NCBI RefSeq assembly: GCF_988243305.1
Contig: NZ_OZ547136.1
Length of the DNA stretch: 64,000 nt
Reading direction: 5' to 3' (one strand)
The position numbers and the translations under genes are program-made. The notes beneath the pieces are model-generated. The model saw nothing but the letters and a program-made list of their open reading frames with translations. It was not told the origin of the DNA and did not search any database. Of the stretch, positions 4,855-63,848 are shown in pieces (the stretch's first letter is position 1; each line of letters opens with the position of its first letter).

Positions 4855-6105
4855 TCAAGCTAAACCAATAAAGAACCCGGCAATGGTCGCGCTCATCAGG
4901 TTGGAAAGCGTTGCTGCTGCCAGCGCCCTTAAACCAAGCTGAGCGATTTCCGGAGCACGTTTTGGCGAAATAGCCGAAAATGCCCCAACGACAACACCGA
5001 TAGAACCAAAGTTAGCAAAACCACAAAGCGCAAAGGAGATAATCGCAATGGTTTTCACTTCCAGCGTGCCGCCCGTTTGCAGGTATGGGGAGAAACTCAG
5101 GTAAGCGACGAATTCGTTAATCGCCAGTTTCTGCCCAATCAGGCTACCCGCAAGGTTGGCATCACTCCAGTCCACACCCATGATCCACGCCAGCGGTGCC
5201 AGCACATAGCCAAAAATACTTTCCAGAGAGGCATTGGCGAAACCAAACCAGCCGCCAATTCCGCCGATAATGCCGTTGATCAGCGCAATAATTGCGACAA
5301 ACGCCATTACCACCGTCGCTACACCAGCGGCGATTTTCAGCCCGGTCATCGCACCGCTCGCCGCCGCTTCGATAAAGCTTTTTGGCGGCGTTTCGCTGAA
5401 CGACAGATTTTCAAATGTCACCTGCGAAGGCTCGGTGGCTGGGCTAAGAATACGTGCAAACAAAATACCACCAGGGATCGCCATCAGCGATGCCGCTAAC
5501 AGGTAGTCAATTGGTACGCCCATTCCGGCATAACCAATCATCATCGAACCAGCAATGGACGCCATCCCGCTACAAATTGCGGTAAACAACTCGTTGCGAT
5601 TCATGCGATCGATAAACGGTTTAACGATCGCAGGGATCTCATTTTGCCCGAGGAAAATAGTGGTAACCGCAACAAAAGATTCGATTTTGCTGATGTTGAG
5701 GGCTTTCTGGAAAATGCTGCCAAGGATGCGGATTAGCAGCCCCATCACGCCAATGTAGTACAGCAGGCTGATGAGCGCAGTGACGAAGATAATCGCCGGG
5801 AGTACGCGAAAGGCGAAGATAAAGCCCGCGCCATCAAACAGGACATCCATTTTCGGCCCGACCAATGAACCAAAAATAAAGGCACTACCGGCATCACTGT
5901 AAGACATCACTTTATGAACGCCTAATGCCGCCTGCTCTACCGCCCATTTTCCTGGTGGAAAATAGAGCATGATGCCGCCAATGGCGATTTGTAGCAGCAG
6001 CGCGGCTCCAACCGTGCGCAAACTGATGCTCTTTTTATTCACTGACAACAAAAATGCTATTGCCAGTAACACCACCATCCCCACAACACTTCTCATTATA
6101 TCCAT
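4855..6105 (-). CDS. psuT: Pseudouridine/nucleoside transporter (CNT family)
   Basis: 416-aa ORF paralogous to nupX; last gene of the psuK-psuG-psuT operon. Confidence 0.9.
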   Translation of the reverse strand: MDIMRSVVGMVVLLAIAFLLSVNKKSISLRTVGAALLLQIAIGGIMLYFPPGKWAVEQAALGVHKVMSYSDAGSAFIFGSLVGPKMDVLFDGAGFIFAFRVLPAIIFVTALISLLYYIGVMGLLIRILGSIFQKALNISKIESFVAVTTIFLGQNEIPAIVKPFIDRMNRNELFTAICSGMASIAGSMMIGYAGMGVPIDYLLAASLMAIPGGILFARILSPATEPSQVTFENLSFSETPPKSFIEAAASGAMTGLKIAAGVATVVMAFVAIIALINGIIGGIGGWFGFANASLESIFGYVLAPLAWIMGVDWSDANLAGSLIGQKLAINEFVAYLSFSPYLQTGGTLEVKTIAIISFALCGFANFGSIGVVVGAFSAISPKRAPEIAQLGLRALAAATLSNLMSATIAGFFIGLA

Positions 6106-6171
6106 AATGATTTTCCCTTCATGCCAGTAAACCCGGCGTCAGCGCCAGGTTTTGGTATGTATGATCAGTAC

Positions 6172-35160: not shown

Positions 35161-37752
35161 TCAGAACGACCAGACCACACCCGCCTGAGTATTCCACGGT
35201 GATTCTACCCCTGCGCCATTGCCATAACTGACTGACAAATGACCGCTTAACGTCGGGGTAAACGATGACCTTATCCCAGCCTGATAAACGCCACGGGTTC
35301 CAGCCACATCATTATTAAATTTGCCATCGTCATTAACTTTCACCTGGTTAGAATCGGCGTATTCCTGACGCACGGCGGCTTTCAGCCAGGGTTCCAACGT
35401 CGTACCGTTTTGCAGGTCCATGTGATAGCTTACCGCCGTTCCCGCTTCAGCGCGTAATATCCGGGTATTTCCCACATCCGCGCGCATGCCATTTGATAAC
35501 GTGTAGTCCTGACCATCTGTGGTAAAGCCGGTAAAGGCCAGATAGGGTCTAACACTCCACAATCCGTCAACCCAACGGAACCCGCTCTCGACATGAGCAC
35601 CCGCGCCGTTACTATTGTAATCGCCAAACGCTGTTGCTCCATTACTCATCTTGCCATGGATGGTGTTGGCAAAACGGTCAACTTTCACCACTCCATCAAC
35701 ATAGGCACCGTTCTGATGCTCCCAACCGGCATAAGCCCCCAGGGTGTAGCTATCGATATTACCTTTGCCGCCGCGATCAAAACCAATATCAGAATGAGAG
35801 TAACCAAAGAACAAGCCGCGAATTGTGCTGCTTTCTTCACGGGAGAAACGGCTATCGATACCGAGCGTCAGGCCCGTCAATGTTTGCTCAAAGCCAGCTC
35901 CCGCATCAGTGGTCACGTTGTTGCGGGTGTTAATTGCCGAACTCCACATCGCCGTATCGTAACTAACGCCTTTTACGCTACCAAGACGCTCACGCACGGT
36001 GTCCAGTTCTGCATCAAATACCAGCGGTTGTGCTGCTGCCATGTTCAGCACATCAGTGGTTGAAGGGGTAATTTGCGCGCGATTCTCTGCGAGGCTCCAG
36101 CTATGGTTGCCATTATCCAGCAAGGTATATTCATACGTACCGATATCAACAACGCCTCCGGCATTGCCCAACGTAAATGCAGCATCACCGCCGCCCGTTG
36201 TTACCAGTGTAAGGCTATCTCCTGCTGCCGGGCTGGCACCGGTGTCCGTCACGAATATTTTGAAATCACCTGTTGCCTGACCGGTGACGTTGAGCTGATC
36301 GCTCTGATGATTAGCCATATCGGTACGCATATAAAAATTGCCATTTCCCGACAGGGTATTGGTGGTCAACGTAATGAAATTTTCCGCACTTGCCGTCACA
36401 GATGAACGAGTCACTGGCTCAGCCATCATAATCACATTTGCGCCAGACATCGCAAGGTTGGCTAAGTTGAGGCGAGTGTTTTGGTTCGTCGTAGTGATAT
36501 CGGCAATGATGGTCCATGCGCTATTTTCGAGCGAAACATCCGCTTTGCTGGTATCCACGGCACCATGCGTTCTAAAAGAAGCGCTATCAGAAACCACTAC
36601 CTTACCCACCAACATTGCGGGCGCATAATTTATTTGCGGCTTCATGACCTCAAGAATGCCATCATTCCCTCTGACTGAAACGTTAACCATTGTGCCAGCC
36701 CAGACGTTAGCGCGGCCATTGTTGATAACCATATTTTCAGAGATGGCTTTTGAGGAATACGTGATACTTCCATTCTGATCTGATCGACCGAGATCATATA
36801 CCGCATTTGCCTGCACTCTCGTACCAGTATCCTTTCCCAGCGATTGCATAGTGGCATGCTCATCAAGGATAGTATCAATGGCCTGCGTGTCCTCCATAAC
36901 AATGAGCCCGGAACCATCATCCAGTTCATAATTTTTTGACACACCATCTTTTATACTAAATTGGCCTTTACTGTTTGTACCACTCACTTCCAGCGCATTC
37001 GTTGAGACAATTAATTTTCCGCCTGCTTTTTTATCAACGCCAGTTGCAGTCCCGCCATCCATAACCTCCAGTAAGCCGCCACTATCCACAGTGGTATTAT
37101 AAGCGAAGTCATTTTCTTCAACTCGCAAACTTCCGCCGTTTTCCAACAGCATATTATTAGCAATACCATCCTTGATATCGAACTGACCGAGACGGTTTGT
37201 TCCGAATACCTCCATGGCCCGCGTGGTTGTTTTAATCGCACCGCCTGCTTTCTGATCTACCGCAAATGCTAATCCCCCCTCTTTAACCTCCAGTAATCCT
37301 CCCTTTTCGATAGCGGCAAAGACGGTAATCCCATCTTTTTCAATAATTAAGCGCCCGCCTTTAATGGTAGTATCATTCGCTGCGCCATAAACCTGTAGCA
37401 CACCATTATTGAGGGTAGTCTGGTTTGCCGCGCCACCCATTTGAACAATTTGATAACCGTCATTTAATACTGAGTATTCTGCGGTGCCATTCATTTCAAT
37501 GTACTGATACCCTCCGTTAATTTCAGTATTACTACTTACACCAAATTCTTTTATATGCTGTTCTCCGCCAGGATTGATTTTCGTATTATTGGCGGTCCCA
37601 TAAACCAGCTGGATATCTTTTTCCAGGACAACACCATCAACTGTCTCACCATACTCAACTGTTGATGCCAATGCTATGGGTGAATATAACGCTGTAGCCA
37701 CCAGAACAGATATTGCGGAACGACAAAGAGAAACAGAACCAGATTGATGCAT
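35161..37752 (-). CDS. yejO: Adhesin-like autotransporter (type Va secretion)
   Basis: 863-aa ORF with N-terminal signal peptide, Gly/Thr/Asn-rich repetitive passenger and C-terminal beta-barrel ending in an aromatic residue (...VVWSF). Appears intact; the region looks lower in GC than its flanks. Confidence 0.85.
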   Translation of the reverse strand: MHQSGSVSLCRSAISVLVATALYSPIALASTVEYGETVDGVVLEKDIQLVYGTANNTKINPGGEQHIKEFGVSSNTEINGGYQYIEMNGTAEYSVLNDGYQIVQMGGAANQTTLNNGVLQVYGAANDTTIKGGRLIIEKDGITVFAAIEKGGLLEVKEGGLAFAVDQKAGGAIKTTTRAMEVFGTNRLGQFDIKDGIANNMLLENGGSLRVEENDFAYNTTVDSGGLLEVMDGGTATGVDKKAGGKLIVSTNALEVSGTNSKGQFSIKDGVSKNYELDDGSGLIVMEDTQAIDTILDEHATMQSLGKDTGTRVQANAVYDLGRSDQNGSITYSSKAISENMVINNGRANVWAGTMVNVSVRGNDGILEVMKPQINYAPAMLVGKVVVSDSASFRTHGAVDTSKADVSLENSAWTIIADITTTNQNTRLNLANLAMSGANVIMMAEPVTRSSVTASAENFITLTTNTLSGNGNFYMRTDMANHQSDQLNVTGQATGDFKIFVTDTGASPAAGDSLTLVTTGGGDAAFTLGNAGGVVDIGTYEYTLLDNGNHSWSLAENRAQITPSTTDVLNMAAAQPLVFDAELDTVRERLGSVKGVSYDTAMWSSAINTRNNVTTDAGAGFEQTLTGLTLGIDSRFSREESSTIRGLFFGYSHSDIGFDRGGKGNIDSYTLGAYAGWEHQNGAYVDGVVKVDRFANTIHGKMSNGATAFGDYNSNGAGAHVESGFRWVDGLWSVRPYLAFTGFTTDGQDYTLSNGMRADVGNTRILRAEAGTAVSYHMDLQNGTTLEPWLKAAVRQEYADSNQVKVNDDGKFNNDVAGTRGVYQAGIRSSFTPTLSGHLSVSYGNGAGVESPWNTQAGVVWSF

Positions 37753-38071
37753 TGAGCTTTCATCCTATGAAATTAATTGCTGTTAAAAGCATTGGGTAAA
37801 GAAAATACCCATAGCTCCATACCCGGAGTCAGTTTTTAAAAACTGTTTAAAGAAATGCACAAGTATTGTGATTGATTTTTTAGTTGTTTTTCTTGATGAG
37901 AAGCTGATGCAAAATTCCGTCTTTATAATGAAAATGATGCCAAAGCGAACGACAAGGTTGTAGTTTTCACTACATGTCCATACATAAAATGGGGTAACAT
38001 TCACGCGCCTGGTAGCGTTACCAACGCTACGCTCAAACATAATGATTCTAATAAAACCTCAGGAGACTACT

Positions 38072-38719
38072 ATGCCTGAAGCAACGCCTTTTCAGGTGAT
38101 GATTGTGGATGATCATCCACTTATGCGACGCGGTGTTCGTCAGTTACTGGAGCTTGATCCTGGCTTTGAAGTGGTCGCCGAAGCGGGCGACGGCGCGAGC
38201 GCGATCGATCTGGCAAATAGACTGGATATCGACGTGATCTTGCTGGATCTCAATATGAAAGGTATGAGTGGCCTGGATACCCTCAATGCCTTGCGCAGGG
38301 ATGGCGTTACCGCGCAAATTATTATCCTGACCGTATCAGATGCCTCCAGCGATGTCTTTGCGCTGATAGACGCAGGCGCAGACGGTTATCTGTTGAAAGA
38401 CAGCGACCCGGAAGTGTTGCTGGAAGCGATTCGTGCCGGAGCGAAAGGCAGCAAAGTCTTTAGCGAACGCGTCAATCAGTACTTACGTGAACGTGAAATG
38501 TTTGGCGCGGAAGAAGATCCCTTCAGCGTGCTGACGGAGCGCGAGCTGGATGTTCTGCACGAGCTGGCACAGGGGCTGTCAAATAAACAGATTGCCTCGG
38601 TGTTGAATATTTCCGAGCAGACAGTAAAAGTACACATTCGCAATCTGCTGCGTAAACTCAATGTCCGCTCACGCGTGGCGGCCACCATTCTGTTCCTGCA
38701 ACAACGCGGGGCACAATAA
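38072..38719 (+). CDS. narP: Nitrate/nitrite response regulator
   Basis: ORF track starts at 38042; ATG at 38072 (MPEATPFQVMIVDDHP...) gives 215 aa with receiver and LuxR-type HTH domains. Confidence 0.95.
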   Translation: MPEATPFQVMIVDDHPLMRRGVRQLLELDPGFEVVAEAGDGASAIDLANRLDIDVILLDLNMKGMSGLDTLNALRRDGVTAQIIILTVSDASSDVFALIDAGADGYLLKDSDPEVLLEAIRAGAKGSKVFSERVNQYLREREMFGAEEDPFSVLTERELDVLHELAQGLSNKQIASVLNISEQTVKVHIRNLLRKLNVRSRVAATILFLQQRGAQ

Positions 38720-38722
38720 AAA

Positions 38723-38755
38723 CAGCCCGATGGCATCACCATCGGGCCTCTTTTT
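38723..38755. terminator. Bidirectional terminator between narP and ccmH
   Basis: Stem GCCCGATGG/CCATCGGGC with loop CATCAC, followed by CTCTTTTTATTT. Confidence 0.7.
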
Positions 38756-39806
38756 ATTTACTCTCCTGCGGCGACAAATGTTGCATCGCCTGCGCGATAC
38801 TACGTTCAATCACCGCACGGCGAGTATCGTTGGCAGGTAAGAGTTTCAACATCATCTCCCACGCGGCAACGGCTTCGCCAAATCGCTGCTGCTCAAAGGC
38901 GTTAAACGCATACATGCTTAACACACGAATATTGCTATGGTCCGTTCTCACCAACTGGCGCAGCAGTTCGCCGCCGAGGCGGTTGTCGTTGGGATCAGAT
39001 GAACGTGTCAACGCTTCAGCGTATCCCAGTGCAGCATCGCTGTTCTTCGGATCGAGGCGATACGCAGTAGCGTATGCATCGGTGGCGATACTGGCGTTAC
39101 CCAGCGCCAGGCCAACGCGGCCCAACATAATCCAGCCTTCTATATCTCCCGGATTTTTTTGCAGTTGAGTACGCATCCCCAGCGCCAGGCGCGACATCTC
39201 TTCTTCGTTGAGCGGATCGGCTTTCGGATCCAGCGCCCTGTCCAGTAACGCCGGAGCCTGTGCCGTGGCCTGCTGCCAGATTTTCACCTGCTGATAGTTG
39301 CCAGTCTGGTAGTAGCTGACGCCAGCCACAATTAACGCCACAACAATACCCGGCAGGTAAACAGCAAATCCGGCACGCTTACCTTCCGGCACGCTTTGTT
39401 CAGGAAACGCTTCCGGCACCACGCGTACCCGACGCCGCGAACGGGCGTAAATGACCCAACCGCCAATGCCAATAGCCACTACCGGAAGCACCCACAGCAG
39501 CACGGTCAGCGGCGTTAACGGCGGATCGTAAGTGACGAAGTTGCCGTAACGCGCCACCATATAATAGACAATCTCTTTCTTACTTTTACCTTCCTGCATC
39601 AGTTCATACACTTTCTGGCGCAGGTCGGTGGCAATCATCGAGTTGGAATCGGCAATGCTGTTGTTCTGGCATTTCGGGCAGCGTAGTTCTTCAGTGAGTT
39701 GCCGGAACTGCTGCTCCTGCGCTTCATCCTTAAACTGCAACACGTCGATGGTCGCCAGCGCTGAGCCGGAGATCATCAGCATCAGCACGCCCAATAAAAA
39801 CCTCAT
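38754..39806 (-). CDS. ccmH: Cytochrome c maturation protein CcmH
   Basis: 350-aa ORF with CxxC motif (LRCPKCQ) and TPR-like C-terminal region. Confidence 0.95.
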   Translation of the reverse strand: MRFLLGVLMLMISGSALATIDVLQFKDEAQEQQFRQLTEELRCPKCQNNSIADSNSMIATDLRQKVYELMQEGKSKKEIVYYMVARYGNFVTYDPPLTPLTVLLWVLPVVAIGIGGWVIYARSRRRVRVVPEAFPEQSVPEGKRAGFAVYLPGIVVALIVAGVSYYQTGNYQQVKIWQQATAQAPALLDRALDPKADPLNEEEMSRLALGMRTQLQKNPGDIEGWIMLGRVGLALGNASIATDAYATAYRLDPKNSDAALGYAEALTRSSDPNDNRLGGELLRQLVRTDHSNIRVLSMYAFNAFEQQRFGEAVAAWEMMLKLLPANDTRRAVIERSIAQAMQHLSPQESK

Positions 39807-40360
39807 TGTGCGGCCTCCTTACTGTATTTCTCCCACAGCGGCTTGATCTCTTCTTCCCAGACGCGAGGATTGAGATCGCCCGCATGGCGATAGCGAATGA
39901 TGCCGTTGCCGTCGATGAGGAACGTTTCTGGCGCGCCATAGACACCGAGATCCAGTCCTAACATGCCGTCGCCATCAAACAGGCTTAGTGCGTAAGGATT
40001 GCCCAGCTCTTTCAGCCAGCTGATTGCCTTCTGGCGATCGTCTTTATAGTTCATGCCGACCACGCGGATGCCCTGCGCAGAAAGCTGATTCAGATATTGA
40101 TGTTCCGCACGGCAGGTCGGACACCAGGTCGCCCAGACGTTAAGCAGCACTGGTTTGCCCTGAGTCAGCACATCCGCCTGATAAAACTGCCCCGGATTGT
40201 CCAGTGATTCGAGACGAAACTTCGGCACTGGCTTGCCAATGAGCGCCGATTCCAGATTGGTCGGATCATCCCCTTCGGCATTACGCGCCAGCTGCCACAG
40301 CAGCGCCGCGGCAATCGCCAGGAAGATAATCAACGGAATTAACAATACTTTGCGCTTCAT
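39803..40360 (-). CDS. ccmG: Thiol:disulfide interchange protein CcmG/DsbE
   Basis: 185-aa thioredoxin-fold ORF with WCPTC active site. Confidence 0.95.
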   Translation of the reverse strand: MKRKVLLIPLIIFLAIAAALLWQLARNAEGDDPTNLESALIGKPVPKFRLESLDNPGQFYQADVLTQGKPVLLNVWATWCPTCRAEHQYLNQLSAQGIRVVGMNYKDDRQKAISWLKELGNPYALSLFDGDGMLGLDLGVYGAPETFLIDGNGIIRYRHAGDLNPRVWEEEIKPLWEKYSKEAAQ

Positions 40361-42300
40361 ACAGCCTCCGGCGCAGTTTTCTGCGGATTCACGCGCTTAC
40401 GATAGCGAGGATCAAACAGACACAGCAGCCCGCCCAATGCCATCATCAGCCCGCCCGCCCAAATCCAGCGAACAAACGGTTTGTAGTAAAGACGCACGGC
40501 CCACGCGCCGTTTTCCAGCTCTTCACCGAGCGCGGCGTACAGGTCACGCGTGATGCCGCCGTCAATTGCCGCTTCGGTCATCATCGACCCAGCAGTGTTG
40601 TAATAACGTTTTTCCGCATACAGCACCGTTTCCGGCTTGCCATCGCGCGTTACGCCGATAGTCGCCACACCGCCACGCCAGTTCGGGCCAGTCACCTCTT
40701 TGACATCACGGAAGGTGAAGCGATATTCATGAATATCGACACTATCACCGGACTTCATGCGCACATCACGCTCAACGCTATAGTTCTGGCTAAAGGCAAT
40801 ACCAACAATTGTCACTGCCAGCCCCAGGTGAGCCGCCACCATTCCCCAATAACTGAAGGTGGTTTTCGTGCCGCGTGAAATACGCAGCACAGCTTCCGCA
40901 ATTGCCAGCACCGCAATCCAGCAGGCCATTGCCAGGCCGAGCACCGTCATCGCCACAACTTTGCTTTCGAACAGCCACGGCAACAGCAGAGACAGCACCA
41001 GCGTAGAGATGAAGGCGATAATCAATAAATTGCGGATTTTACGTGGGCGATCGCGCCCCCAGCGCACCAGAGGACCGACACCAAGCAGTAGCGCAAACGG
41101 CACCATCAGCCAGGTAAACATGGTGTTGAAGAACGGTTCGCCAATCGAAATACTGCCCAGTCCCAGTTGCTTGTGCACCAGCGGCAACAGCGTCCCCAGC
41201 AACACCACCAGCATCGCGGCGACCAGCAAAACGTTGTTCGCTAACAGCAAAGATTCCCGCGACCACAGCGCATTGTTTACGCGTGAGCGAACTTTGTGTC
41301 CACGCGCAGCAAACAGCAGCAGCGAACCGCCAATCACCAGCACCATAAAGGCGAGGATAAACATGCCGCGCGCCGGATCAGAGGCAAACGCGTGTACCGA
41401 TACCAGCACGCCGGAACGCACGAGGAAAGTCCCCAACAGACACAACGAGAAGGCACTGATTGCCAGCAGTAATGTCCACGCTTTGAAGCTGGCGCGTTGT
41501 TCAGTGACCGCCAGTGAGTGCATCAGCGCAGTCCCCACCAGCCACGGCATAAACGAGGCGTTTTCTACCGGATCCCAGAACCACCAGCCACCCCAGCCGA
41601 GTTCGTAATAGGCCCATGCGGAACCGAGCACGATGCCGAGCGTCAGGAAGATCCACGCTGCCAGTGTCCACGGACGAGTAAAACGCGCATAAGTGCTGTC
41701 CAGACGCCCGCTCAACAAAGAAGCAATGGCAAAAGCAAACGCCACCGAGAAGCCGACGTACCCCATATAGAGCAGAGGCGGATGGAAGATCAACCCCGGA
41801 TCCTGCAACAGCGGGTTAAGGTCGCGCCCTTCAATCGGGAAGTTCGGCAGCGTGCGTGAGAATGGATTAGAGGTAAAGAGAATGAACAGCAAAAAGCCGA
41901 CGCTGACCATCCCCATTATCGCCAGTACACGGGCCACAATATCCAGCGGAATACGCTGACTAAAAATCGCTACCGCAAAGGTCCAGCCGCTCATTAGCAG
42001 CACCCACAGCAGGAGCGAGCCTTCATGCGCGCCCCAGGTGGCCGCCACGCGATACCACACCGGAAGCTGGGTATTAGAGTTGCTGGCAACATAGGTGACG
42101 GTAAAGTCGTTGACCACGAAAGCATTGACCAGCACCAGAAATGCGCCAGCCACAGACATAAACAGCAGCCAGGCAAATAAGCGGGAAGACGCCATCATGC
42201 GCGCATCTCCGCGCGCCACGCCCCATAGCGGATACACGGACAGCAGCAGCGCAATTCCCAGCGCCAGGCACAGCAGTCCGTTACCAATTTCCGGCATCAT
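40357..42300 (-). CDS. ccmF: Cytochrome c-type biogenesis heme lyase subunit CcmF
   Basis: 647-aa polytopic ORF with a Trp-rich WGGWWFWD motif. Confidence 0.95.
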
Positions 42301-42776
42301 GATGCTGGGTCCTTATAAACACTCGCCGGGCGACGGTGGTTAGCTTCCATCGCTTTCTCAACTTCTGGCGGCGTATAGTTTTCATCATGTTTCGCCAGCA
42401 CTTCTTTCGCGAGGATATGATTGCCTTTTTCCAGCTCGCCCTGCACTACAACGCCCTGCCCTTCACGGAACAGATCCGGCAAAATGCCTTCGTAAGAAAC
42501 ATCCACTGAGCCTTCAGCATCGTAAATGGTGAAGGTCACTTTCAGCGAATTGGGATCGCGCTGCACGCTACCCGGCATCACCATCCCGCCAACGCGCAGA
42601 CGCTGACCGACTTCCGGCATCTGCTGAGTTTCACGCTTGCCGTAGAGAATTTCCCCCGGCGTATAAAAGAGATCGATATTCGAGCGCAGCGCATACAGCA
42701 CCAGACCGATGGTCAGCGCCAAACCTGCCAACACAGCACAGGCAATCCACAAGCGGTTTTTACGGCGAATATTCAT
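42297..42776 (-). CDS. ccmE: Heme chaperone CcmE
   Basis: 159-aa ORF with N-terminal anchor and LAKHDENY heme-binding region. Confidence 0.95.
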
Positions 42777-42982
42777 GCAGCCTCCTGCTGTTGCGCAGCA
42801 CGTAAACGCGCCTCACGCGCCCGCTGTTGCGCCACACCACGCAGAATTGCGCGATGCTGCATCACCGAGTGCACGACCAAAACCACCAGCGGAATAATGG
42901 TCATCACCACCGCCAGCCAGACAAAAAAGGCGTAACCGCCCATTGCGAAAAATTCATTCCAGGAAGCAAATGCAGGGGTCAT
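42773..42982 (-). CDS. ccmD: Heme exporter protein CcmD
   Basis: 69-aa single-TM ORF, 4-nt overlaps on both sides. Confidence 0.9.
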
Positions 42983-43716
42983 TTACGGCCTCTTTTCAGT
43001 ATCAGTTCACTCACCCACGGACGGCGTTTTTCCATCAGCAAAATTAAATTACGCATCCGCATCAGCGTCAGCGTGGCAGACAGCAGCAAGAAGCCAAAAA
43101 TCGACCAGCGCAGCGGCGAACGCATCGCCGGATCGATACTTTGCTGCATTCGCGTTGATCCCTGATGCAGGGTGTTCCACCACTCCACGGAGTAATGAAT
43201 AATCGGCAGATTCACCACGCCAATCAGCACCAGGATACCTGCCGCACGGCCCGCCAGACGGCGGTCGTCGAAGGCGTGCCACAGGGCAATTACACCAACA
43301 TACAGAAACAGCAGCACCAGTTCAGAAGTCAGGCGTGCGTCCCATACCCACCAAGTGCCCCACATCGGTTTTCCCCATGCAGAGCCGGTAACCAGGGCAA
43401 TAAAGGTAAACACGGCACCAATGGGGGCCATCGCCGCCACCGCCAGGTTGGCCATTTTCATCTGCCAGACAAGGCCAATAAACGCCGCCACCGCCATTGA
43501 TGCATAAATGCCCATCGACCAGATCGCCGCAGGCACATGCAGGTAGATAATGCGGTAGCTATTTCCCTGCTGATAATCAGCCGGAGCAAAGCCGAATCCC
43601 CAGATCCAGCCAACGGTAAGCACGACCACACTGGCAATTGCCAGCCACGGTATAAACCAGCCACAGATTTGATACAGCCGTGGTGGGATCGCCAGTTGAT
43701 GCAGTGTTTTCCACAT
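42979..43716 (-). CDS. ccmC: Heme exporter protein CcmC
   Basis: ORF track starts at 43740; Met at 43716 (MWKTLHQLA...) gives 245 aa with a Trp-rich WGxxWxWD motif. Confidence 0.9.
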   Translation of the reverse strand: MWKTLHQLAIPPRLYQICGWFIPWLAIASVVVLTVGWIWGFGFAPADYQQGNSYRIIYLHVPAAIWSMGIYASMAVAAFIGLVWQMKMANLAVAAMAPIGAVFTFIALVTGSAWGKPMWGTWWVWDARLTSELVLLFLYVGVIALWHAFDDRRLAGRAAGILVLIGVVNLPIIHYSVEWWNTLHQGSTRMQQSIDPAMRSPLRWSIFGFLLLSATLTLMRMRNLILLMEKRRPWVSELILKRGRK

Positions 43717-43757
43717 AGTTTCGATACCAGACTCGAACAAAAATCAGTAATCCAGCG

Positions 43758-44420
43758 TTATTGAATGCTGATTCGTAACGCTGCCGCCGTCGCAAAAGGA
43801 CTTAATGTCGCGGTGCCTGCCAGCAACGCGCCTAAAATTGCCAGATACCCGTCAACGGGCAAATGCATGGAAGCCGCGTCCATCGCGGCGGTGGCAAAGA
43901 TGAGTAATGGGATAGTCAGCGGTAACACCAGTATGCTGAGCAGCACACCACCGCGCTTAAGTCCCACTGTCAGCGCCACGCCCGGTGCACCGAGAAAGCC
44001 AAGCGTAGGCGTTCCCAGCAGCAGCGTCAGCGCCATCACTTGCCAGCCATAAACATCCATTCCCAGTAGCATTGCTACCAGTGGCGAAAGGACGAGTAAC
44101 GGCAGACCGGTTACCATCCAGTGCGCCATCACCTTCGCCAGCACAACGGCGGGCAAGGGTAACGGCAACAACATCAATTGTTCAAGACTGCCGTCCTGCA
44201 AATCGTCACGGAACAGACGCTCCAGTGCCAGCAAGGATGAAAGCAGCGCAGCAACCCAGATAACGCCCGGTGCAATACGCGCCAGCAGTTGCGGCTCCGG
44301 ACCGATACTGAGCGGAAAAAGGGTAATGACAATCAGGAAGAACCACAGCGGGTTGGCGATTTCGGCGCTGTGGCGAAACGCTACGCGCAGCTCAAGACGG
44401 AAAATGCGCCAGAACATCAT
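43758..44420 (-). CDS. ccmB: Heme exporter permease CcmB
   Basis: 220-aa polytopic ORF. Confidence 0.9.
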
Positions 44421-45040
44421 GCGGCCCTCGTTTGCGTCAGTGAAATGCGGCGAATTTTACTTTCAGCAACGTTGAGCGGCTGGTGGGTAGTCAGAATCAC
44501 AATCCCCCCCTGCTCCGTATGCTGTGCCATACGCTGGGTCAGACGATCGACGCCGTTAACGTCAATCGCGGTAAAAGGCTCGTCGAGGATCCATAACGTG
44601 GCACGGGTCAGCCACAGACGCGCTAAAGCGACGCGGCGTTGTTGCCCGGCAGAAAGTTGATTTACAGGAATATCTTCGAATCCGGCAAGCCCGGCCTGCG
44701 CCAGGGCTTCCAGACATTGTGCGGTATCGCCATCGCGATGATAAAAGTGCAGATTTTCTAACGCCGTCAGCCGGGTTTTGATCCCCGGCTGATGGCCTAT
44801 CCATAACAGGTTTTGATGGTAGCTGTCGCGTACCTGATGCAAGGGCTGCCCTTGCCAGAGAACCTCGCCTGCGTCAGGGCGAGACAACCCCGTCAGCAAA
44901 CGGAGAAGCGTTGTCTTCCCCGCGCCGTTGCTACCGGTGATTTGTACCCATTCTCCTGCGTTCAGCGTAAATGATAAACCACTAAATAAGGTTCGTTCAT
45001 CCCGCTCACAAAGTAACTCTCTGGCTTCAAGCATACCCAC
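44417..45040 (-). CDS. ccmA: Heme exporter ATP-binding protein CcmA
   Basis: 207-aa ABC ATPase with Walker [10 protein letters not shown] and LSAGQQRR signature. Confidence 0.95.
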
Positions 45041-45052
45041 GCAATAACCCTG

Positions 45053-45655
45053 TTAAAAACCTGGCTCGACTTCGCGCATATCGGGCAGCTTGTGCGCTAT
45101 CCCTTTATGGCAATCAATACAGGTTTGCCCATCTTTCACCGCCTGGTCATGCATCTTCGCGGCAACCGATTTCTGGGCGGTTGTATCCATATACTCGAAG
45201 TTGTGACAGTTACGGCACTCCTGCGAGTTATTGTCCTTCATGCGCCGCCACTCATTCTGTGCCATCGTCAGGCGATGAGCTTCAAATTTCTGCGGCGTGT
45301 CAATAACGCCAAAAATTTTACCATACAGCTCTTTACTTGCTTTGAGCTTGCGTATCATCTTCGGCACAAACTCGTGCGGAACGTGACAATCCGGACAGGT
45401 CGCACGAACGCCGCTACGGTTGTTGTAGTGCACGGAATCCATGTATTCCTGATACACCGTGTTACGCATTTCGTGGCAGCTAATGCAGAACTCTTCGGTA
45501 TTGGCTTTTTCCATCCCGGTGTTAAAGCCGCCCCAGAAGACGATGCCACCGACAAAACCGATCAACAGCAGCGTCCCCAGCGCCAGACGGCTGGGGGTAC
45601 GCCACCATTTCCACAGGCGCTTAATCAGACCAGGCTTACGGTCAGAATTTCCCAT
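45053..45655 (-). CDS. napC: Periplasmic nitrate reductase tetraheme cytochrome c NapC
   Basis: 200-aa ORF with N-terminal anchor and four CxxCH motifs. Confidence 0.95.
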   Translation of the reverse strand: MGNSDRKPGLIKRLWKWWRTPSRLALGTLLLIGFVGGIVFWGGFNTGMEKANTEEFCISCHEMRNTVYQEYMDSVHYNNRSGVRATCPDCHVPHEFVPKMIRKLKASKELYGKIFGVIDTPQKFEAHRLTMAQNEWRRMKDNNSQECRNCHNFEYMDTTAQKSVAAKMHDQAVKDGQTCIDCHKGIAHKLPDMREVEPGF

Positions 45656-45664
45656 AATAACCTC

Positions 45665-46114
45665 TTATTTCCCGTAACCTTTTGATGGGGTAAAGGTATT
45701 CCCCACGATTGGCGCGGTATCGGCCTGCGGTACGTGACATTGCAGACAGAAATAACGACGCGGAGCCACTTCCGCGCCCACTTTGCCGTCGCTGTCCATA
45801 AAGTGAGTAGGACTGATGCGCGGTGCGCCAGTGGTGCGATAGCTTTCGACACCGTGGCACTGCAAGCAGCGGTTGGTATTGGTCGTTACCTGATAACCTT
45901 CAACGCTATGCGGGATCATTGGCGGCTGATTCACATAGTTCAGCGGCATCCGTTCCTGCTCTTTTGGCATCCGAATGGCCCCTTCCTGCGTCCCGGATAC
46001 TTCCGGCGACTGGCTAAAATCGACGCCATTAGCCGCCCAAACCGCGCCGCTCACCACCAGGGCCAGCATCGCCGTCCATTGACACAGCGCTTTCTTCAGG
46101 TCATGGCTTTTCAT
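45665..46114 (-). CDS. napB: Periplasmic nitrate reductase diheme cytochrome c subunit NapB
   Basis: ORF track starts at 46135; Met at 46114 (MKSHDLKK...) gives 149 aa with two CxxCH motifs. Confidence 0.9.
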   Translation of the reverse strand: MKSHDLKKALCQWTAMLALVVSGAVWAANGVDFSQSPEVSGTQEGAIRMPKEQERMPLNYVNQPPMIPHSVEGYQVTTNTNRCLQCHGVESYRTTGAPRISPTHFMDSDGKVGAEVAPRRYFCLQCHVPQADTAPIVGNTFTPSKGYGK

Positions 46115-46974
46115 GATTTCGCTCCCGAACTCCATCGTGTAGTTATTGTAAATACATCCTCAGAACAGACATCCACGCAGCGACCGCACGTCATGCAATC
46201 GCGGCTGGTGACCTGCACCGGGCTTTGTTCATCCAGCACCGGGGCACGTAGCACATGCGGTTCCGGGCAAACATGAAAACAATCCATACAGCGGTTACAT
46301 TTCTGCCGATCGGTGGCCGCAACGGTAATGACACCTTTGCTACCCAGCACGCCATACAGCGCGCCAACCGGACAAATGTGCCCGCACCAGCCGTGTTCAA
46401 CGACCAGTAGATCAAATAAAAACAGCGCGAGAATAAGCAGCGCGCCGCTGCCGAATCCCATTACCAGACTGCGCCCCATCAGGGAAACGGGGTTGATCCA
46501 TTCCCAGATGAGCGTGCCGGTTAAGGCCGATCCCAGCAGAATGACTACCAACAGCACGTAGCGAATGTGGCGTGGGATCGTCGCAGACTGATTGAGGTCA
46601 AAGCGCCTGCGTAACCAGTTCGCTAAGTCGGTAATCGGGTTCAGCGGGCAGACCCAGCTGCAAAATAATCGCTTTCCTGCCAGGGCGTAGAGCACGGTGA
46701 TAATTACCGCACCGGTCAACGCCACCGTGGCAGGCAGATGACCGCTGGCAAGACTTTGCAGCGTCATCAGCGGATCGGTCAGCGGAACGGTGTCGAATAA
46801 CAGGCTACTGCTGTAGTTGCCGTGCAAGATCCACACACCAAACCACGGACCGCTCAAAAACATCCCCAGCACGAAGAACTGACAAAGGCGACGTAACACC
46901 AGCCAACGGTGGCTGCGCCACCAGCCTTTTTTCTCCAGCGCCTCGCGCCCGGCGTCACGTTTACGATTTGCCAT
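46111..46974 (-). CDS. napH: Ferredoxin-type membrane protein NapH
   Basis: 287-aa ORF with TM segments and CxxCxxC ferredoxin motifs. Confidence 0.95.
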
Positions 46975-47656
46975 TGTTCCCCTCCAGCCAGCCGAAGCGG
47001 TAATGGTGACCTAACTCCCCTTTCGCCAGTGACAGCGGTAACACCTTGATTGCCGGTTGTTCCAGCACGCACACTTTTTCGCACTTACCGCAGCCGGTAC
47101 AGGCGTCGCTGTGAACCGTCGGCAGAAAGCGGGCGTGCTTACCGGTACGCGTGTTGCGCTCCAGCTCCAGGGTGATTGCCTCATCAATTTTCGGGCATTC
47201 GCGATAACAAACATCGCAGCGCAGCCCCTGAAAGTTGAGACAGTTTTCCTGGTCCACCAGTACCGCCAGCCCCATCCGCGCGTCGTCGATCGATTCGATC
47301 TCACGATCCAGCGCACCGCTCGGGCACACTTTGGCGCACGGAATGTCCTCACACATTTCGCAAGGAATATCCCGTGCGACAAAATATGGCGTGCCCGCCG
47401 ACAGGCCAGAAGCCAGCGTCGCCAGTTTTAAGGTGTCATAAGGGCAAGCCTGAACACACTGACCGCAACGCACACAGGCACTGGCAAAGGCGTTCTCGTT
47501 TATGGCTCCGGGCGGGCGCAACCGCACGCCAGATGCGCGTGCGGTTTGCTGTTGTAACCCCAGCGCCACACCCACGGCAGCCAGCCCGCCAGCTGTGCGA
47601 ACGACATCGCGCAGAAAGCGGCGGCGACCATTTTGAGGTTTCGCTGACCGGGACAT
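46961..47656 (-). CDS. napG: Ferredoxin-type protein NapG
   Basis: 231-aa ORF with twin-arginine signal (RRRFLR) and four 4Fe-4S motifs. Confidence 0.95.
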
Positions 47657-47662
47657 AATGGC

Positions 47663-50149
47663 TTACACCTTCTCCAGTTTGACCGCGCACTTCTTGAAGT
47701 CCGTCTCTTTCGAGAGCGGATCGGTCGCATCCAGCGTCAGTTTGTTAACCAGCTGTGCGGCGTCGAAGAACGGCATGTACACCAGGCCCTGCGGCGGACG
47801 GTTACGACCGCGCGTTTCGACAATCGAGATCACTTCGCCACGGCGAGAAACCACTTTCACTTTGTCGCCACGGCGCAGATCGCGCGCTTTCGCATCCAGC
47901 GGGTGAATAAACAGGACCGCTTCCGGGAAGGCGCGGTGCAGTTCCGGCACACGGCGAGTCATACTGCCGGTGTGCCAGTGCTCCAGGACGCGTCCGGTAG
48001 AGAGCCACAGGTCGTACTCTTCATCCGGTGCCTCCGCCGCCGGTTCGAACGGCAGCGCGAAGATCACCGCTTTGCCATCCGGTTTACCGTAGAACTTGTA
48101 GCCTTCGCCCGCTTTCACGTACGGGTCGTTACCTTCGCTGTAACGCCACTGCGTTTCTTTACCGTTCACCACCGGCCAGCGCAGACCGCGCGCTTTGTGG
48201 TAGTCATCGAACGGTGCCAGATCGTGACCGTGACCGCGACCAAACCATGCGTACTCTTCGAACAGCCCTTTTTGCAGATAGAAGCCCAGCTCGCGGGATT
48301 CATCGTTCAGCTGATCTTCCGCCAGTTCGGATACCGGGAATTTGCTCACTTCCGGGGTGGCATACAGAACTTCGTACAGCGTTTTGCCACGCAGTTCCGG
48401 TTTCTTCGCCAGCAGATCTTCCGGCCATACTTCTTCAGTTTTGAAGCGGCGGGAGAACTGGACTAACTGCCAGAGATCCGATTTCGCTTCGCCCGGTGCC
48501 TGTACCTGCTGACGCCAGAACTGAGTACGGCGTTCGGCGTTACCGTAAGCACCCTCTTTTTCTACCCACATTGCGGTCGGCAGGATCAAGTCGGCGGCCA
48601 GCGCACTGACTGTCGGATACGGATCGGAGACGATGATGAAGTTGCGCGGATCGCGCCAGCCCGGCATACGCTCTTCATTGATGTTCGGCCCGGCCTGCAT
48701 GTTGTTGGTACACATGGTCCAGTAAACATTCAGCTTGCCGTCTTTCAGCGCACGGTCTTGTGCTACCGCATGCAGACCGATTTTCGCCGGAATGGTGCCG
48801 CTCGGGATATTCCACTTCTTCTCGCAGATATCACGATGTTTCTCGTTAGTTACCACCATGTCCGCAGGCAGACGGTGAGCAAAGGTGCCCACTTCACGCG
48901 CAGTACCACACGCGGAAGGCTGCCCGGTCAGGGAGAACGGACCGCAACCCGGCTTGGAAATTTTGCCGGTCAGCAGGTGCAGGTTGTAGACCAGGTTGTT
49001 GGCCCATACACCACGGGTATGCTGGTTGAAGCCCATCGTCCAGTAGGAGATGACTTTCTTGTTCGGATCGGCATACAGCTGCGCCAGTTGTTCTAACTGG
49101 TCTTTCGGCACGCCGGTCATTTCGGCAGTTTTTTCCAGCGTATACTCAGCAACGAAGGCTTTGTAATCTTCAAAGCTCATCGGTTCGGAGGCGTCAGAAC
49201 CCGGATTCTTCGCTGCTTTTTCCAGCGGATGGGTCGGACGTAAACCGTAGCCGATGTCCGTCGCCCCTTTGCGCAGGTTAACGTGCTTGCTGAAGAAGTC
49301 CTGATTTATCGCATTGTTTTGAATGATATAGTTGGCGATGTAGTTCAGGATCACCAGGTCAGATTGCGGCGTAAAGATGATGCCGTTATCCGCCAGCTCG
49401 AAGCTACGATGCTGGTAGGTAGAAAGCACCGCCACGGTGACGTTCTGGTTAGAGAGACGACGGTTAGTGATGCGCGACCAGAGGATCGGGTGCATCTCCG
49501 CCATGTTTGCGCCCCACAGCACAAACGCGTCAGCCTGCTCGATGTCGTCATAGCAGCCCATCGGCTCATCCATACCAAAGGTACGCATAAAGCCAACTAC
49601 CGCCGACGCCATACAGTGACGCGCGTTCGGGTCGATGTTGTTCGAACGGAATCCCGCTTTAAACAGCTTGGACGCGGCATAACCTTCCCAGATAGTCCAC
49701 TGACCAGAACCGAACATACCGATCGATTCCGGCCCTTTTTCTTTCAGGGCGGTTTTGAATTTCTCTTCCATCACATCGAAGGCTTGATCCCAGGTGATTG
49801 GGGTAAATTCGCCTTCTTTGTCATATTTACCGTTTTTCATACGCAGAAGCGGCTGCGTCAAACGGTCTTTACCGTACATGATTTTGGGCAGGAAATAGCC
49901 CTTAATGCAGTTCAGACCACGGTTAACCGGTGCGTCCGGGTCGCCCTGACAGGCCACCACACGCCCCTGCTGCGTTCCGACCAGAACGCCGCAACCCGTA
50001 CCGCAGAAACGGCACGGCGCTTTATCCCATTTAATGGCTTCCTGCTGACCAACAACGGCGCGGGCAACGCCCGGCACGCTGAGACCGGCAGCCGCCGCAG
50101 CGGCCGCAACGGCGTTAGCTTTCATAAAGCTACGACGACTGAGTTTCAT
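47663..50149 (-). CDS. napA: Periplasmic nitrate reductase catalytic subunit NapA (molybdoenzyme)
   Basis: 828-aa ORF with Tat signal (SRRSFMK) and N-terminal CxxCxxxC Fe-S motif. Confidence 0.95.
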
Positions 50150-50409
50150 GGTGTTTCCTCACCTTGCTCTTCCTGCTGGTGATAAACCAGCGACACCGCC
50201 AGCACGCCCTCTACGTTGCGTACTGACTCAATGGTTTGAATCAGCGTTTCGCTGTCTTCTGCTTCCACCACCACAATCAACTGACCGCTCGGCGCGTCGC
50301 TGACAGCAACTTCACAGCCGGGAAAGGCGTTCAGTTGGGTGCTGATGTCTGAAATTCGTTCGCTTTTGGCCTGCACGACCAGGCTGCAAACTTGCCAGTT
50401 AGTGTGCAT
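50146..50409 (-). CDS. napD: NapA chaperone NapD
   Basis: 87-aa ORF overlapping napA start by 4 nt. Confidence 0.9.
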
Positions 50410-50893
50410 GGAGATACTCCGCAGTTATGGCTGATACCGGACAGCTGGCTGCACATGCTCCACATCCGTTGCAAAGTTGGCTATTAAGTTGCGGCTGGTA
50501 GATCCCGGAGAGCGTCGGGCGAAAGATAATTGCCATTGGCTCACAGCTATCCTGACAGCGGCGGCATTCAACTGACTGATACGCCAGGCACGCCTCCCCG
50601 ATGGTGAACAGCAAATCCCAGGCCCTGGTGTGGCGCGGAGAAAATAGCGATTCGGGGCAAGCCTGCGCGCAGGCGTAACAGAAGCTGCACTCGTTATTTT
50701 TGAAATTAACGCTCGGATAGCCACCCGCGCCGCGTTGCAGAATGTTGTTTTCACAAGCATTAATACAGGCGTCGCAGCGAGTGCAATGGGTCAGAAAATG
50801 AGATTCATCACCGGACCAGGGCGGACGGATACCGTTACTGGCTTTGCGCCAGCGACCAGTGAGTATGCCCCGACGGGATGCATCAATCTTCAC
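50399..50893 (-). CDS. napF: Ferredoxin-type protein NapF
   Basis: 164-aa ORF with multiple CxxCxxC motifs; start codon is GTG by sequence. Confidence 0.9.
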   Translation of the reverse strand: MKIDASRRGILTGRWRKASNGIRPPWSGDESHFLTHCTRCDACINACENNILQRGAGGYPSVNFKNNECSFCYACAQACPESLFSPRHTRAWDLLFTIGEACLAYQSVECRRCQDSCEPMAIIFRPTLSGIYQPQLNSQLCNGCGACAASCPVSAITAEYLHAH

Positions 50894-51006
50894 ATTGACC
50901 TTCCATCATTAACGCGCTCTGAAAATTGAGAGCGACCAAATAAACCGCATAATTAATAAGCCATTTTTATAGCCGCTAAGATATTAAAGGATGTGTCAAA
51001 GATGCA

Positions 51007-51022
51007 TACCCCGATCGGGGTA
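51007..51022 (-). promoter_or_regulatory. NarP/NarL 7-2-7 heptamer pair in napF promoter
   Basis: TACCCCG-AT-CGGGGTA, a perfect 16-bp palindrome matching TACYYMT-nn-AKRRGTA. Confidence 0.7.
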
Positions 51023-51027
51023 AAACC

Positions 51028-51041
51028 TGTAGCAGGATCAA
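51028..51041 (-). promoter_or_regulatory. Candidate FNR site in napF promoter
   Basis: Minus-strand TTGATCCTGCTACA (one good TTGAT half-site), centred 20 bp upstream of the NarP site, consistent with the recalled -64.5/-44.5 architecture. Confidence 0.5.
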
Positions 51042-51300
51042 AAGAGTGGCGGGAAGCGTGGCAAAAACGGGCTTTTGCTCACATTTCAAATGGTTATAAA
51101 CATATTTATATAGCGATTAATTCACCAGAGATATTTATGTCGGTTTGTTCTCTCACCAGAATTTAACACTAAAAGAGCAGGTAAAATTGTCTGAATGTTC
51201 TTTAAGTTATTCATAAAGCAAATTAATAAATCTGATGAATATGTTAACCTTCAGCGACATCATCGGTGAAAACCTATAAATGAAGAAGGAAAGCAAAAAA

Positions 51301-51789
51301 ATGAAGACCATTCTACCTGCAGTATTGTTTGCCGCTTTCGCCACCACTTCCGCCTGGGCGGCAGAAAGCGTCCAGCCACTGGAAAAAATCGCGCCTTATC
51401 CACAAGCTGAAAAAGGCATGAAGCGTCAGGTGATTCAGTTAACCCCGCAAGAAGATGAATCTACCCTGAAAGTAGAACTGTTAATCGGCCAGACGCTGGA
51501 AGTCGATTGCAATTTGCATCGTCTCGGCGGGAAGCTGGAAAGCAAAACGCTGGAAGGCTGGGGCTATGATTATTACGTCTTTGATAAAGTTAGCTCGCCG
51601 GTTTCCACGATGATGGCCTGCCCGGATGGCAAGAAAGAGAAGAAATTTGTCACCGCGTATCTGGGCGATGCCGGAATGCTGCGTTATAACAGCAAGCTGC
51701 CGATCGTGGTGTATACGCCAGACAATGTGGATGTGAAGTACCGCATCTGGAAGGCGGAAGAGAAAATTGACAACGCGGTAGTCCGCTAA
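51301..51789 (+). CDS. eco: Ecotin (periplasmic serine protease inhibitor)
   Basis: ORF track starts at 51280; ATG at 51301 ([20 protein letters not shown]...) gives 162 aa with signal peptide. Confidence 0.95.
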
Positions 51790-51805
51790 ACTGCCGTGAA
51801 GTGCT

Positions 51806-51938
51806 CCACCCCGTAGGTCGGATAAGGCGGTCACGCCGCATCCGACATCCAACGCCCGAGCCGGTTGCCTGATGCGACGCTGACGCGTCTTATCTGCATA
51901 CGCCACATCCGGCATACCATGCCGGATGTGGCACATCA
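51806..51938. repeat. REP element cluster (BIME-like)
   Basis: Several GCCGGATG / CATCCGGC-type palindromic units between eco and mqo. Confidence 0.6.

Positions 51939-53597
<1,659 letters not shown>

Positions 53598-63685: not shown

Positions 63686-63848
<163 letters not shown>

Follow-up and report, generated by a model that had tools for sequence, protein, structure and literature searches.

The genes for the periplasmic nitrate reductase (nap) and for cytochrome c maturation (ccm) lie next to each other in the window, that is, in the whole 64,000-nt stretch of contig NZ_OZ547136.1 (NCBI RefSeq assembly GCF_988243305.1) that was analysed. The listing of open reading frames (ORFs) for window positions 37500-52500 gives 15 consecutive ORFs on the minus strand, running from 50893 to 38754 without interruption. 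Each translates to a single stop codon and has the length annotated by RefSeq in the Escherichia coli genomes Ecol_545 and K-12 MG1655. The RefSeq gene names in both genomes are napF, napD, napA, napG, napH, napB, napC, ccmA-F, ccmG (dsbE) and ccmH, and 14 of the 15 products are named by NCBIfam equivalog models above their curated cut-offs. CcmH is of the fused CcmH-CcmI type usual in E. coli, with a Pfam CcmH domain followed by a CcmH/CycH tetratricopeptide repeat (TPR) domain. The block is thus almost certainly the E. coli aeg-46.5 operon, napFDAGHBC-ccmABCDEFGH, for periplasmic nitrate reductase and cytochrome c maturation. As such it is already known: it is operon b2208-b2194 of K-12, here in a different lineage of the species, with nothing new inside it. 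An earlier note, made from the sequence alone, had assigned these gene identities, this order and the minus strand, and the ORFs, RefSeq names and NCBIfam and Pfam models agree with it throughout. Its statement that the organisation is as expected also holds, as no gene is inserted within the block relative to K-12 or Ecol_545.

The features of the block and its flanks are collected in Table 1. The nap part is in the order F-D-A-G-H-B-C and has all of the accessory genes napF, napD, napG and napH, while the ccm part has all eight genes of CcmABCDEFGH in order, with the signature motifs of CcmA, CcmC, CcmE, CcmF, CcmG and CcmH kept. The set of cofactor and active-site motifs expected of nap and ccm proteins is complete. 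NapA has a twin-arginine translocation (Tat) signal, SRRSFMK, at residue 4 and the Fe-S motif CxxCxxxC, as CRFCGTGC, at residue 46, and Fe-S cluster motifs are present in NapF, NapG and NapH. Relative to K-12 there are 219 coding differences, and all but 14 of them leave the protein sequence unchanged. This small share of amino-acid changes, together with the intact ORFs and motifs, argues that the nap-ccm genes here are functional and under purifying selection. Scanned with Rfam at E <= 1, positions 37000-53000 gave no match inside the block, the only match being a REP-like one between eco and mqo. The five longest antisense ORFs in the block (180-299 aa) have no Pfam match and were treated as chance ORFs.

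Table 1. Genes, regulatory sites and terminator of the nap-ccm block, in window coordinates
Feature	Position	Strand	Description
napF control region	51007..51115	-	three site-like sequences read upstream of napF
ModE-like site	51115-51093	-	CGCTATATAAATATGTTTATAAC; sequence match
FNR site	51041-51028	-	TTGAT-N4-CTACA; sequence match
NarP/NarL 7-2-7 site	51022-51007	-	TACCCCGATCGGGGTA, heptamers TACCCCG-AT-CGGGGTA; sequence match
napF	50399..50893	-	ferredoxin-type, GTG start, 164 aa, three CxxCxxCxxxC motifs; TIGR00402 244.5 bits (cut-off 102)
napD	50146..50409	-	NapA signal-peptide chaperone, 87 aa; NF007840 168 bits (cut-off 113)
napA	47663..50149	-	catalytic molybdoenzyme subunit, 828 aa; TIGR01706 1654 bits (cut-off 930)
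napG	46961..47656	-	ferredoxin-type, RRRFLR Tat-like signal, 231 aa
napH	46111..46974	-	membrane quinol dehydrogenase ferredoxin subunit, 287 aa
napB	45665..46114	-	dihaem cytochrome c subunit, 149 aa, 2 CXXCH; NF008609 328.8 bits (cut-off 230)
napC	45053..45655	-	tetrahaem NapC/NirT quinol dehydrogenase, 200 aa, 4 CXXCH; equivalog model above cut-off
ccmA	44417..45040	-	haem-exporter ATPase, GTG start, 207 aa, Walker A GSNGAGKT
ccmB	43758..44420	-	haem exporter membrane subunit, 220 aa
ccmC	42979..43716	-	haem-handling WWD protein, 245 aa, WGTWWVWD
ccmD	42773..42982	-	69 aa
ccmE	42297..42776	-	periplasmic haem chaperone, 159 aa, His130 in HDENY
ccmF	40357..42300	-	haem lyase subunit, 647 aa, WGGWWFWD
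ccmG/dsbE	39803..40360	-	thioredoxin-like thiol:disulfide oxidoreductase, 185 aa, CPTC
ccmH	38754..39806	-	350 aa; CcmH residues 7-130 (PF03918, CPKC) and CcmI-like TPR domain residues 173-330 (PF23914)
Shared bidirectional intrinsic terminator	38724..38748	both	GC-rich hairpin (38725-38747) with a U-tract in both directions; terminator scan and folding; termination on the minus strand predicted
Hairpin folding, minus strand		-	-24.1 kcal/mol, z -6.8; 0/200 shuffles as good
Hairpin folding, plus strand		+	-19.9 kcal/mol, z -6.95; 0/200 shuffles as good
narP	38072..38719	+	nitrate/nitrite response regulator, napF promoter activator; NF007708 457 bits (cut-off 343)

Judged from these protein sequences, the seven nap genes would provide a periplasmic nitrate reductase in which NapAB is the enzyme, NapC and NapGH are quinol dehydrogenases, NapD is a chaperone and NapF an Fe-S protein. 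The eight ccm genes would provide the System I cytochrome c maturation pathway, with CcmABCD for haem delivery, CcmE as the chaperone, CcmFH as the lyase and CcmG as the reductant. The Ccm machinery would then attach haem to NapB and NapC, as well as to other c-type cytochromes of the cell.

The junctions between the genes, with distances computed from the RefSeq start codons, are unusually tight. Ten of the 14 overlap: a 4-nt ATGA overlap occurs at eight of them (napD/A, napH/B, ccmA/B, ccmC/D, ccmD/E, ccmE/F, ccmF/G and ccmG/H), and longer overlaps of 11 nt and 14 nt occur at napF/napD and napG/napH, respectively. The remaining four are gaps of 6 nt (napA/G), 9 nt (napB/C), 12 nt (napC/ccmA) and 41 nt (ccmB/C). 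The earlier note had the two longer overlaps right and counted seven ATGA overlaps, one too few, the extra one being napH/napB. The count is seven only if napB is started at an upstream ATG at 46135, and napH/napB, where this longer ORF start also exists, is probably the junction that was left out; the annotated napB ATG at 46114 has a GGGAG Shine-Dalgarno sequence 8 nt upstream. In E. coli as a whole, 24% of unidirectional gene pairs fall within the distance class -8 to +6, compared with nine of the 14 junctions here (binomial P = 0.0014). Eight of the 14 have the distance of -4, which does not occur among the window's remaining 27 same-strand pairs (Fisher P = 3e-5). The distances of napB/C (+9) and napC/ccmA (+12) belong to a small E. 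coli-specific peak, whose gene pairs are nearly always polycistronic.

Huber et al. found strict translational coupling at four of the five native E. coli ATGA pairs that they tested. In their work coupling collapsed with spacers from about 20 nt upwards, and short-distance pairs were enriched 4.5-fold for subunits of heteromeric complexes. The ATGA overlaps, each with a Shine-Dalgarno sequence inside the upstream gene, these precedents and the complexes that nap and ccm products form together make translational coupling, which the earlier note also read from the overlaps, likely at the ten overlapping nap-ccm junctions, as we infer it from the junction analysis. Ribosomes that end one gene could reinitiate on the next, which would help to set the subunit ratios in the membrane complexes. 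The overlaps could also have arisen neutrally, through genome compaction and the composition of stop and start codons, each gene being initiated independently at its own Shine-Dalgarno sequence. This is unlikely, although it has some evidence behind it: -4 is already the commonest distance in E. coli and in most prokaryotes, and at all eight ATGA junctions the downstream gene has a Shine-Dalgarno sequence of its own inside the upstream gene, with duplex energies of -5.8 to -12.1 kcal/mol. The fifth pair tested by Huber et al., bioBF, is an ATGA pair that is uncoupled and initiates de novo. Set against this are the enrichment of short distances in the block over the E. coli genome, the strict coupling of the other four assayed pairs, and the enrichment of such distances for heteromeric complex subunits, which are the type encoded here.

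Coupling need not extend to every gene, and two starts in the ccm part tell against it there. Over the whole block, the duplex with the anti-Shine-Dalgarno sequence reaches -5.8 kcal/mol or lower at 13 of the 15 starts and -6 kcal/mol or lower at 11 of the 15, compared with 7.7% of background positions. The weakest is that of ccmC (-3.0 kcal/mol), followed by that of ccmA (-3.3 kcal/mol), which has a GTG start. These two weakest sites (43711-43760 and 45035-45060) come after the two largest gaps, 41 nt and 12 nt, and are unsuited to tight coupling. Probably ccmA and ccmC initiate independently and weakly, and it is possible that their starts are points where the level of translation is reset within the operon.

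Upstream of napF, three site-like sequences that match binding sites for ModE, FNR and NarP/NarL define a control region (Table 1), in which the centres of the FNR and NarP/NarL sites are 20 bp apart. We take the three to be the napF sites assigned by Darwin & Stewart and by McNicholas & Gunsalus to -64.5 (FNR), -44.5 (NarP/NarL) and -133.5 (ModE), positions that would presumably put the start of napF transcription near 50970. In K-12, chromatin immunoprecipitation sequencing (ChIP-seq) of FNR gives a napF peak at 2301675 (NC_000913.2), which maps to about 51049 in the window, about 15 bp from the FNR site, and the same paper reports that FNR-dependent transcription of napFDAGHBC requires NarP. 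Site matches and literature together point to an FNR-dependent promoter upstream of napF as the probable start of transcription, with NarP as its activator, NarL as an antagonist and ModE as a modulator. The region is overlain by an annotated 54-aa coding sequence on the plus strand, yojO (51002-51166), within which the NarP/NarL, FNR and ModE-like sites all lie. Having no Pfam match, yojO was treated as a chance ORF. Just upstream of it, at 50926-50953, is a plus-strand promoter-like sequence, TTGAGA-16-CATAAT (10/12), back-to-back with the putative napF start.

Whether all 15 genes are carried by one transcript, as the earlier note proposed, is a question of what lies between this promoter and the end of ccmH. 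In the literature ccm and nap make up the aeg-46.5 operon, which the napF promoter drives and which is expressed only anaerobically. The spacers in the block, 41 nt at most, are too short to hold both a terminator and a promoter. Hits resembling terminators number 24 in the block against an expected 17.2 +/- 4.2, without enrichment. The internal terminator candidates were rejected for weak stems, poor U-tracts and z from +0.8 to -2.5, the best of them, at 45778-45757 in napB, having z = -2.5 and a poor U-tract. No sigma-70-like promoter turned up on the block's minus strand in a consensus scan (four sites in all against 9.5 expected), a blank result that neither supports nor excludes, from sequence alone, a published internal promoter. 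With spacers this short and no strong internal intrinsic terminator, transcription could run through all 15 genes.

Several observations, mostly from K-12, weigh against a single RNA at all times. Mapping of transcription start sites (TSSs) in K-12 gives two weak internal starts, with 2 and 10 reads, which correspond to window 45648 (the third codon of napC) and 44793 (inside ccmA), and a napF TSS is unlisted in the same dataset. A bicyclomycin-sensitive, Rho-dependent termination region with a Rho score of 2.7 and low counts has been reported in K-12 napC and maps to about 45374, inside napC of the window. The single transcript in the present strain, moreover, is one that we infer from site matches and the literature. 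Given the internal K-12 starts and the Rho region, some RNAs carry only part of the block. On the other side, starts of 2 and 10 reads are at the level of many intragenic starts in the same K-12 table, and a rut-like C-rich composition was not seen near the napC Rho region, where the mRNA is G-rich. With no promoter found by the scan and a G-rich napC mRNA, the published internal TSS and Rho signals lack independent sequence support. Supplements of SMRT-Cappable-seq hold no nap or ccm entries, and a list derived from RegulonDB records transcription-factor binding at napF, napB, napC, ccmA, ccmB and ccmH. A text search of the literature for a ccmA promoter returned nothing usable. Tanapongpipat et al. 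reportedly described in 1998 a ccmA promoter within napC, besides the napF promoter.

These signals would fit two abutting units, with nap transcribed from the napF promoter, ccm mainly from one or more promoters of its own in or near napC, and read-through from napF minor. Besides the starts at napC codon 3 and in ccmA, the Rho-sensitive region and the reported ccmA promoter in napC, it would be in line with this that napC/ccmA is among the only four junctions that do not overlap, that ccmA starts with GTG behind the second-weakest Shine-Dalgarno sequence, and that ccm and nap are unlinked in Vibrio natriegens. The Ccm proteins are also needed for the Nrf and Tor cytochromes, which likewise counts for a separate unit. 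Yet napC and ccmA are spaced by merely 12 nt without a hairpin or U-tract, the consensus scan found no minus-strand promoter, the internal starts are at the level of the table's many intragenic ones, the napC mRNA around the Rho region is G-rich rather than C-rich, and ccm is placed by the literature in aeg-46.5, which is silent aerobically. Two such units are therefore rather improbable, and the block is best read as a single, unsplit long operon within which ccm has weak nested starts. Weak internal initiation near or within napC and ccmA probably supplies a basal, nap-independent expression of ccm. The single transcript of the earlier note thus stands as far as napF-driven expression is concerned, given the literature, the short spacers and the lack of a strong internal terminator, but it is incomplete in view of the weak internal starts and the Rho region of K-12. 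As to the internal terminators or promoters that, according to that note, would split the block, weak internal signals do exist in K-12; none is strong, and no internal intrinsic terminator is convincing.

At the 3' end, narP on the plus strand converges with ccmH, and the two are separated by a spacer of 34 nt (window 38720-38753) with the sequence TAAAAACA-GCCCGATGG-CATCA-CCATCGGGC-CTCTTTTTAT. Its hairpin is flanked by an A-run and a T-run, so that a U-tract follows on either transcribed strand, and the terminator scan calls both strands. In K-12, Term-seq has mapped a plus-strand RNA end to 2291359, on the final T of the run that follows an identical hairpin; this 3' end corresponds to window 38755, inside the ccmH stop codon. 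The convergence of narP and the bidirectional terminator between the two genes, both described in the earlier note, are thereby upheld, with the hairpin and its U-tracts in both directions and the end in the narP direction observed in K-12. Transcription of nap-ccm would end at this single hairpin, common to the convergent narP. On the minus strand, termination at the hairpin is predicted from the sequence, a point on which the reading is weaker: from aerobic cultures, a condition under which nap-ccm is silent, Term-seq reports no minus-strand end here, so that termination toward ccmH has the status of a prediction.

The hairpin might mainly stabilise mRNA or be associated with repeats, terminating narP only, while nap-ccm transcripts end elsewhere or by Rho. 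The 3' end observed on the plus strand only would agree with this, as would the duplication of the hairpin in K-12 around two repetitive extragenic palindromic (REP) elements, which ties it to repeat insertion. It is nevertheless very unlikely, because the minus-strand fold is even the stronger of the two (11 pairs, -24.1 kcal/mol), begins 6 nt past the ccmH stop codon and is followed by GUUUUUAUU, and aerobic cultures, in which nap-ccm is silent, would be expected to show no minus-strand Term-seq end. A shared bidirectional terminator remains the preferred interpretation of the hairpin.

E. coli has more than one form of the narP/ccmH spacer: a compact one of 34 nt and a K-12-type one of 210 nt. 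The full-length K-12-type spacer occurs in 1,505 of 5,426 complete E. coli genomes, the genomes sampled outside this group have the compact form (a 234-nt span), and the compact spacer is the majority form among complete genomes. In the compact spacer narP and nap-ccm share the 23-bp hairpin, and since the narP 3' end lies inside the ccmH stop codon, coupling of the convergent transcripts is conceivable. Read-through or pairing of 3' ends could then couple the expression of the activator and the operon, an idea that must be rated as extremely improbable. If it were true, narP and nap-ccm would be uncoupled in strains with the K-12-type spacer, where the REP insertion leaves each gene with a separate copy of the hairpin.

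A few features of the window outside the block deserve mention. The spacer between eco and mqo contains at 51816-51914 a REP-like element that scores 55 bits with Rfam naRNA4, against a gathering score of 59.5, and the spacer is about 560 nt longer in K-12 than in the window and Ecol_545. The autotransporter gene yejO (35161-37752, minus strand) is an intact ORF of 863 aa, as in Ecol_545, whereas the K-12 copy is a pseudogene split by IS5. The genes nupX and psuT (1671-2935 and about 4858-6122) encode paralogous nucleoside transporters of the NupC family with about 80% nucleotide identity. The segment 50421-63689, from eco to rcsB and including ompC, is 97.3% identical to Ecol_545 with 17 gap openings, compared with 98.8% for the upstream 38 kb, and the alignment with Ecol_545 ends at 63689.

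The value of the block is mainly one of annotation: it is an intact, conserved example of an E. coli operon that ranks among the longest and best studied. It could also serve as a clean positive control for the analysis of gene junctions, with its eight ATGA overlaps at 14 junctions, and for calls of bidirectional terminators.

Megablast of 38000-52000 against the 5,426 complete E. coli genomes shows how widespread the locus is: the segment is matched in 5,425 of them and covered to at least 80% in one place in 5,416. The best identity is 99.3%, 27 records reach at least 99%, and most are between 95 and 99%; for the nap-ccm block itself, none of these genomes exceeds 99.3%, so the strain of the window is absent from this set. 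The best matches, Ecol_545 and 26 other complete genomes, are collinear with the window over at least 1-63689 and have an identical gene content and the compact narP/ccmH spacer, but differ by about 0.7-2.7% of nucleotides depending on the segment. The aeg-46.5 operon of K-12 MG1655 (b2208-b2194) has the same 15 genes in the same order, with identical gene lengths and every junction distance identical, and the same strand relation to narP, yojO and eco. Its alignment with the window is free of gaps from 38724 to 51894 at 98.1% identity, and the ccmH-proximal hairpin is identical in sequence. It differs by the coding substitutions and amino-acid changes given above and by its 210-nt narP/ccmH spacer, which holds a second, diverged copy of the hairpin with two REP elements between the copies. 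This spacer, outside the genes, is the sole structural difference from K-12 seen for the block.

More distant systems differ in arrangement or in family. Among other Gammaproteobacteria, Vibrio natriegens, for example, has homologous System I Ccm and Nap proteins, but its ccm genes form a separate operon with a promoter of its own and its nap genes are located elsewhere, so that the fusion of napC to ccmA is not universal. Within E. coli, the haem lyase genes nrfEFG are paralogues of ccmF and ccmH, and CcmF and CcmH of the window match the NrfE and NrfF models. Their scores, however, are under the Nrf-specific cut-offs, the best-matching model is that of the CcmF/NrfE family, and the genes stand in a ccm rather than an nrf context.

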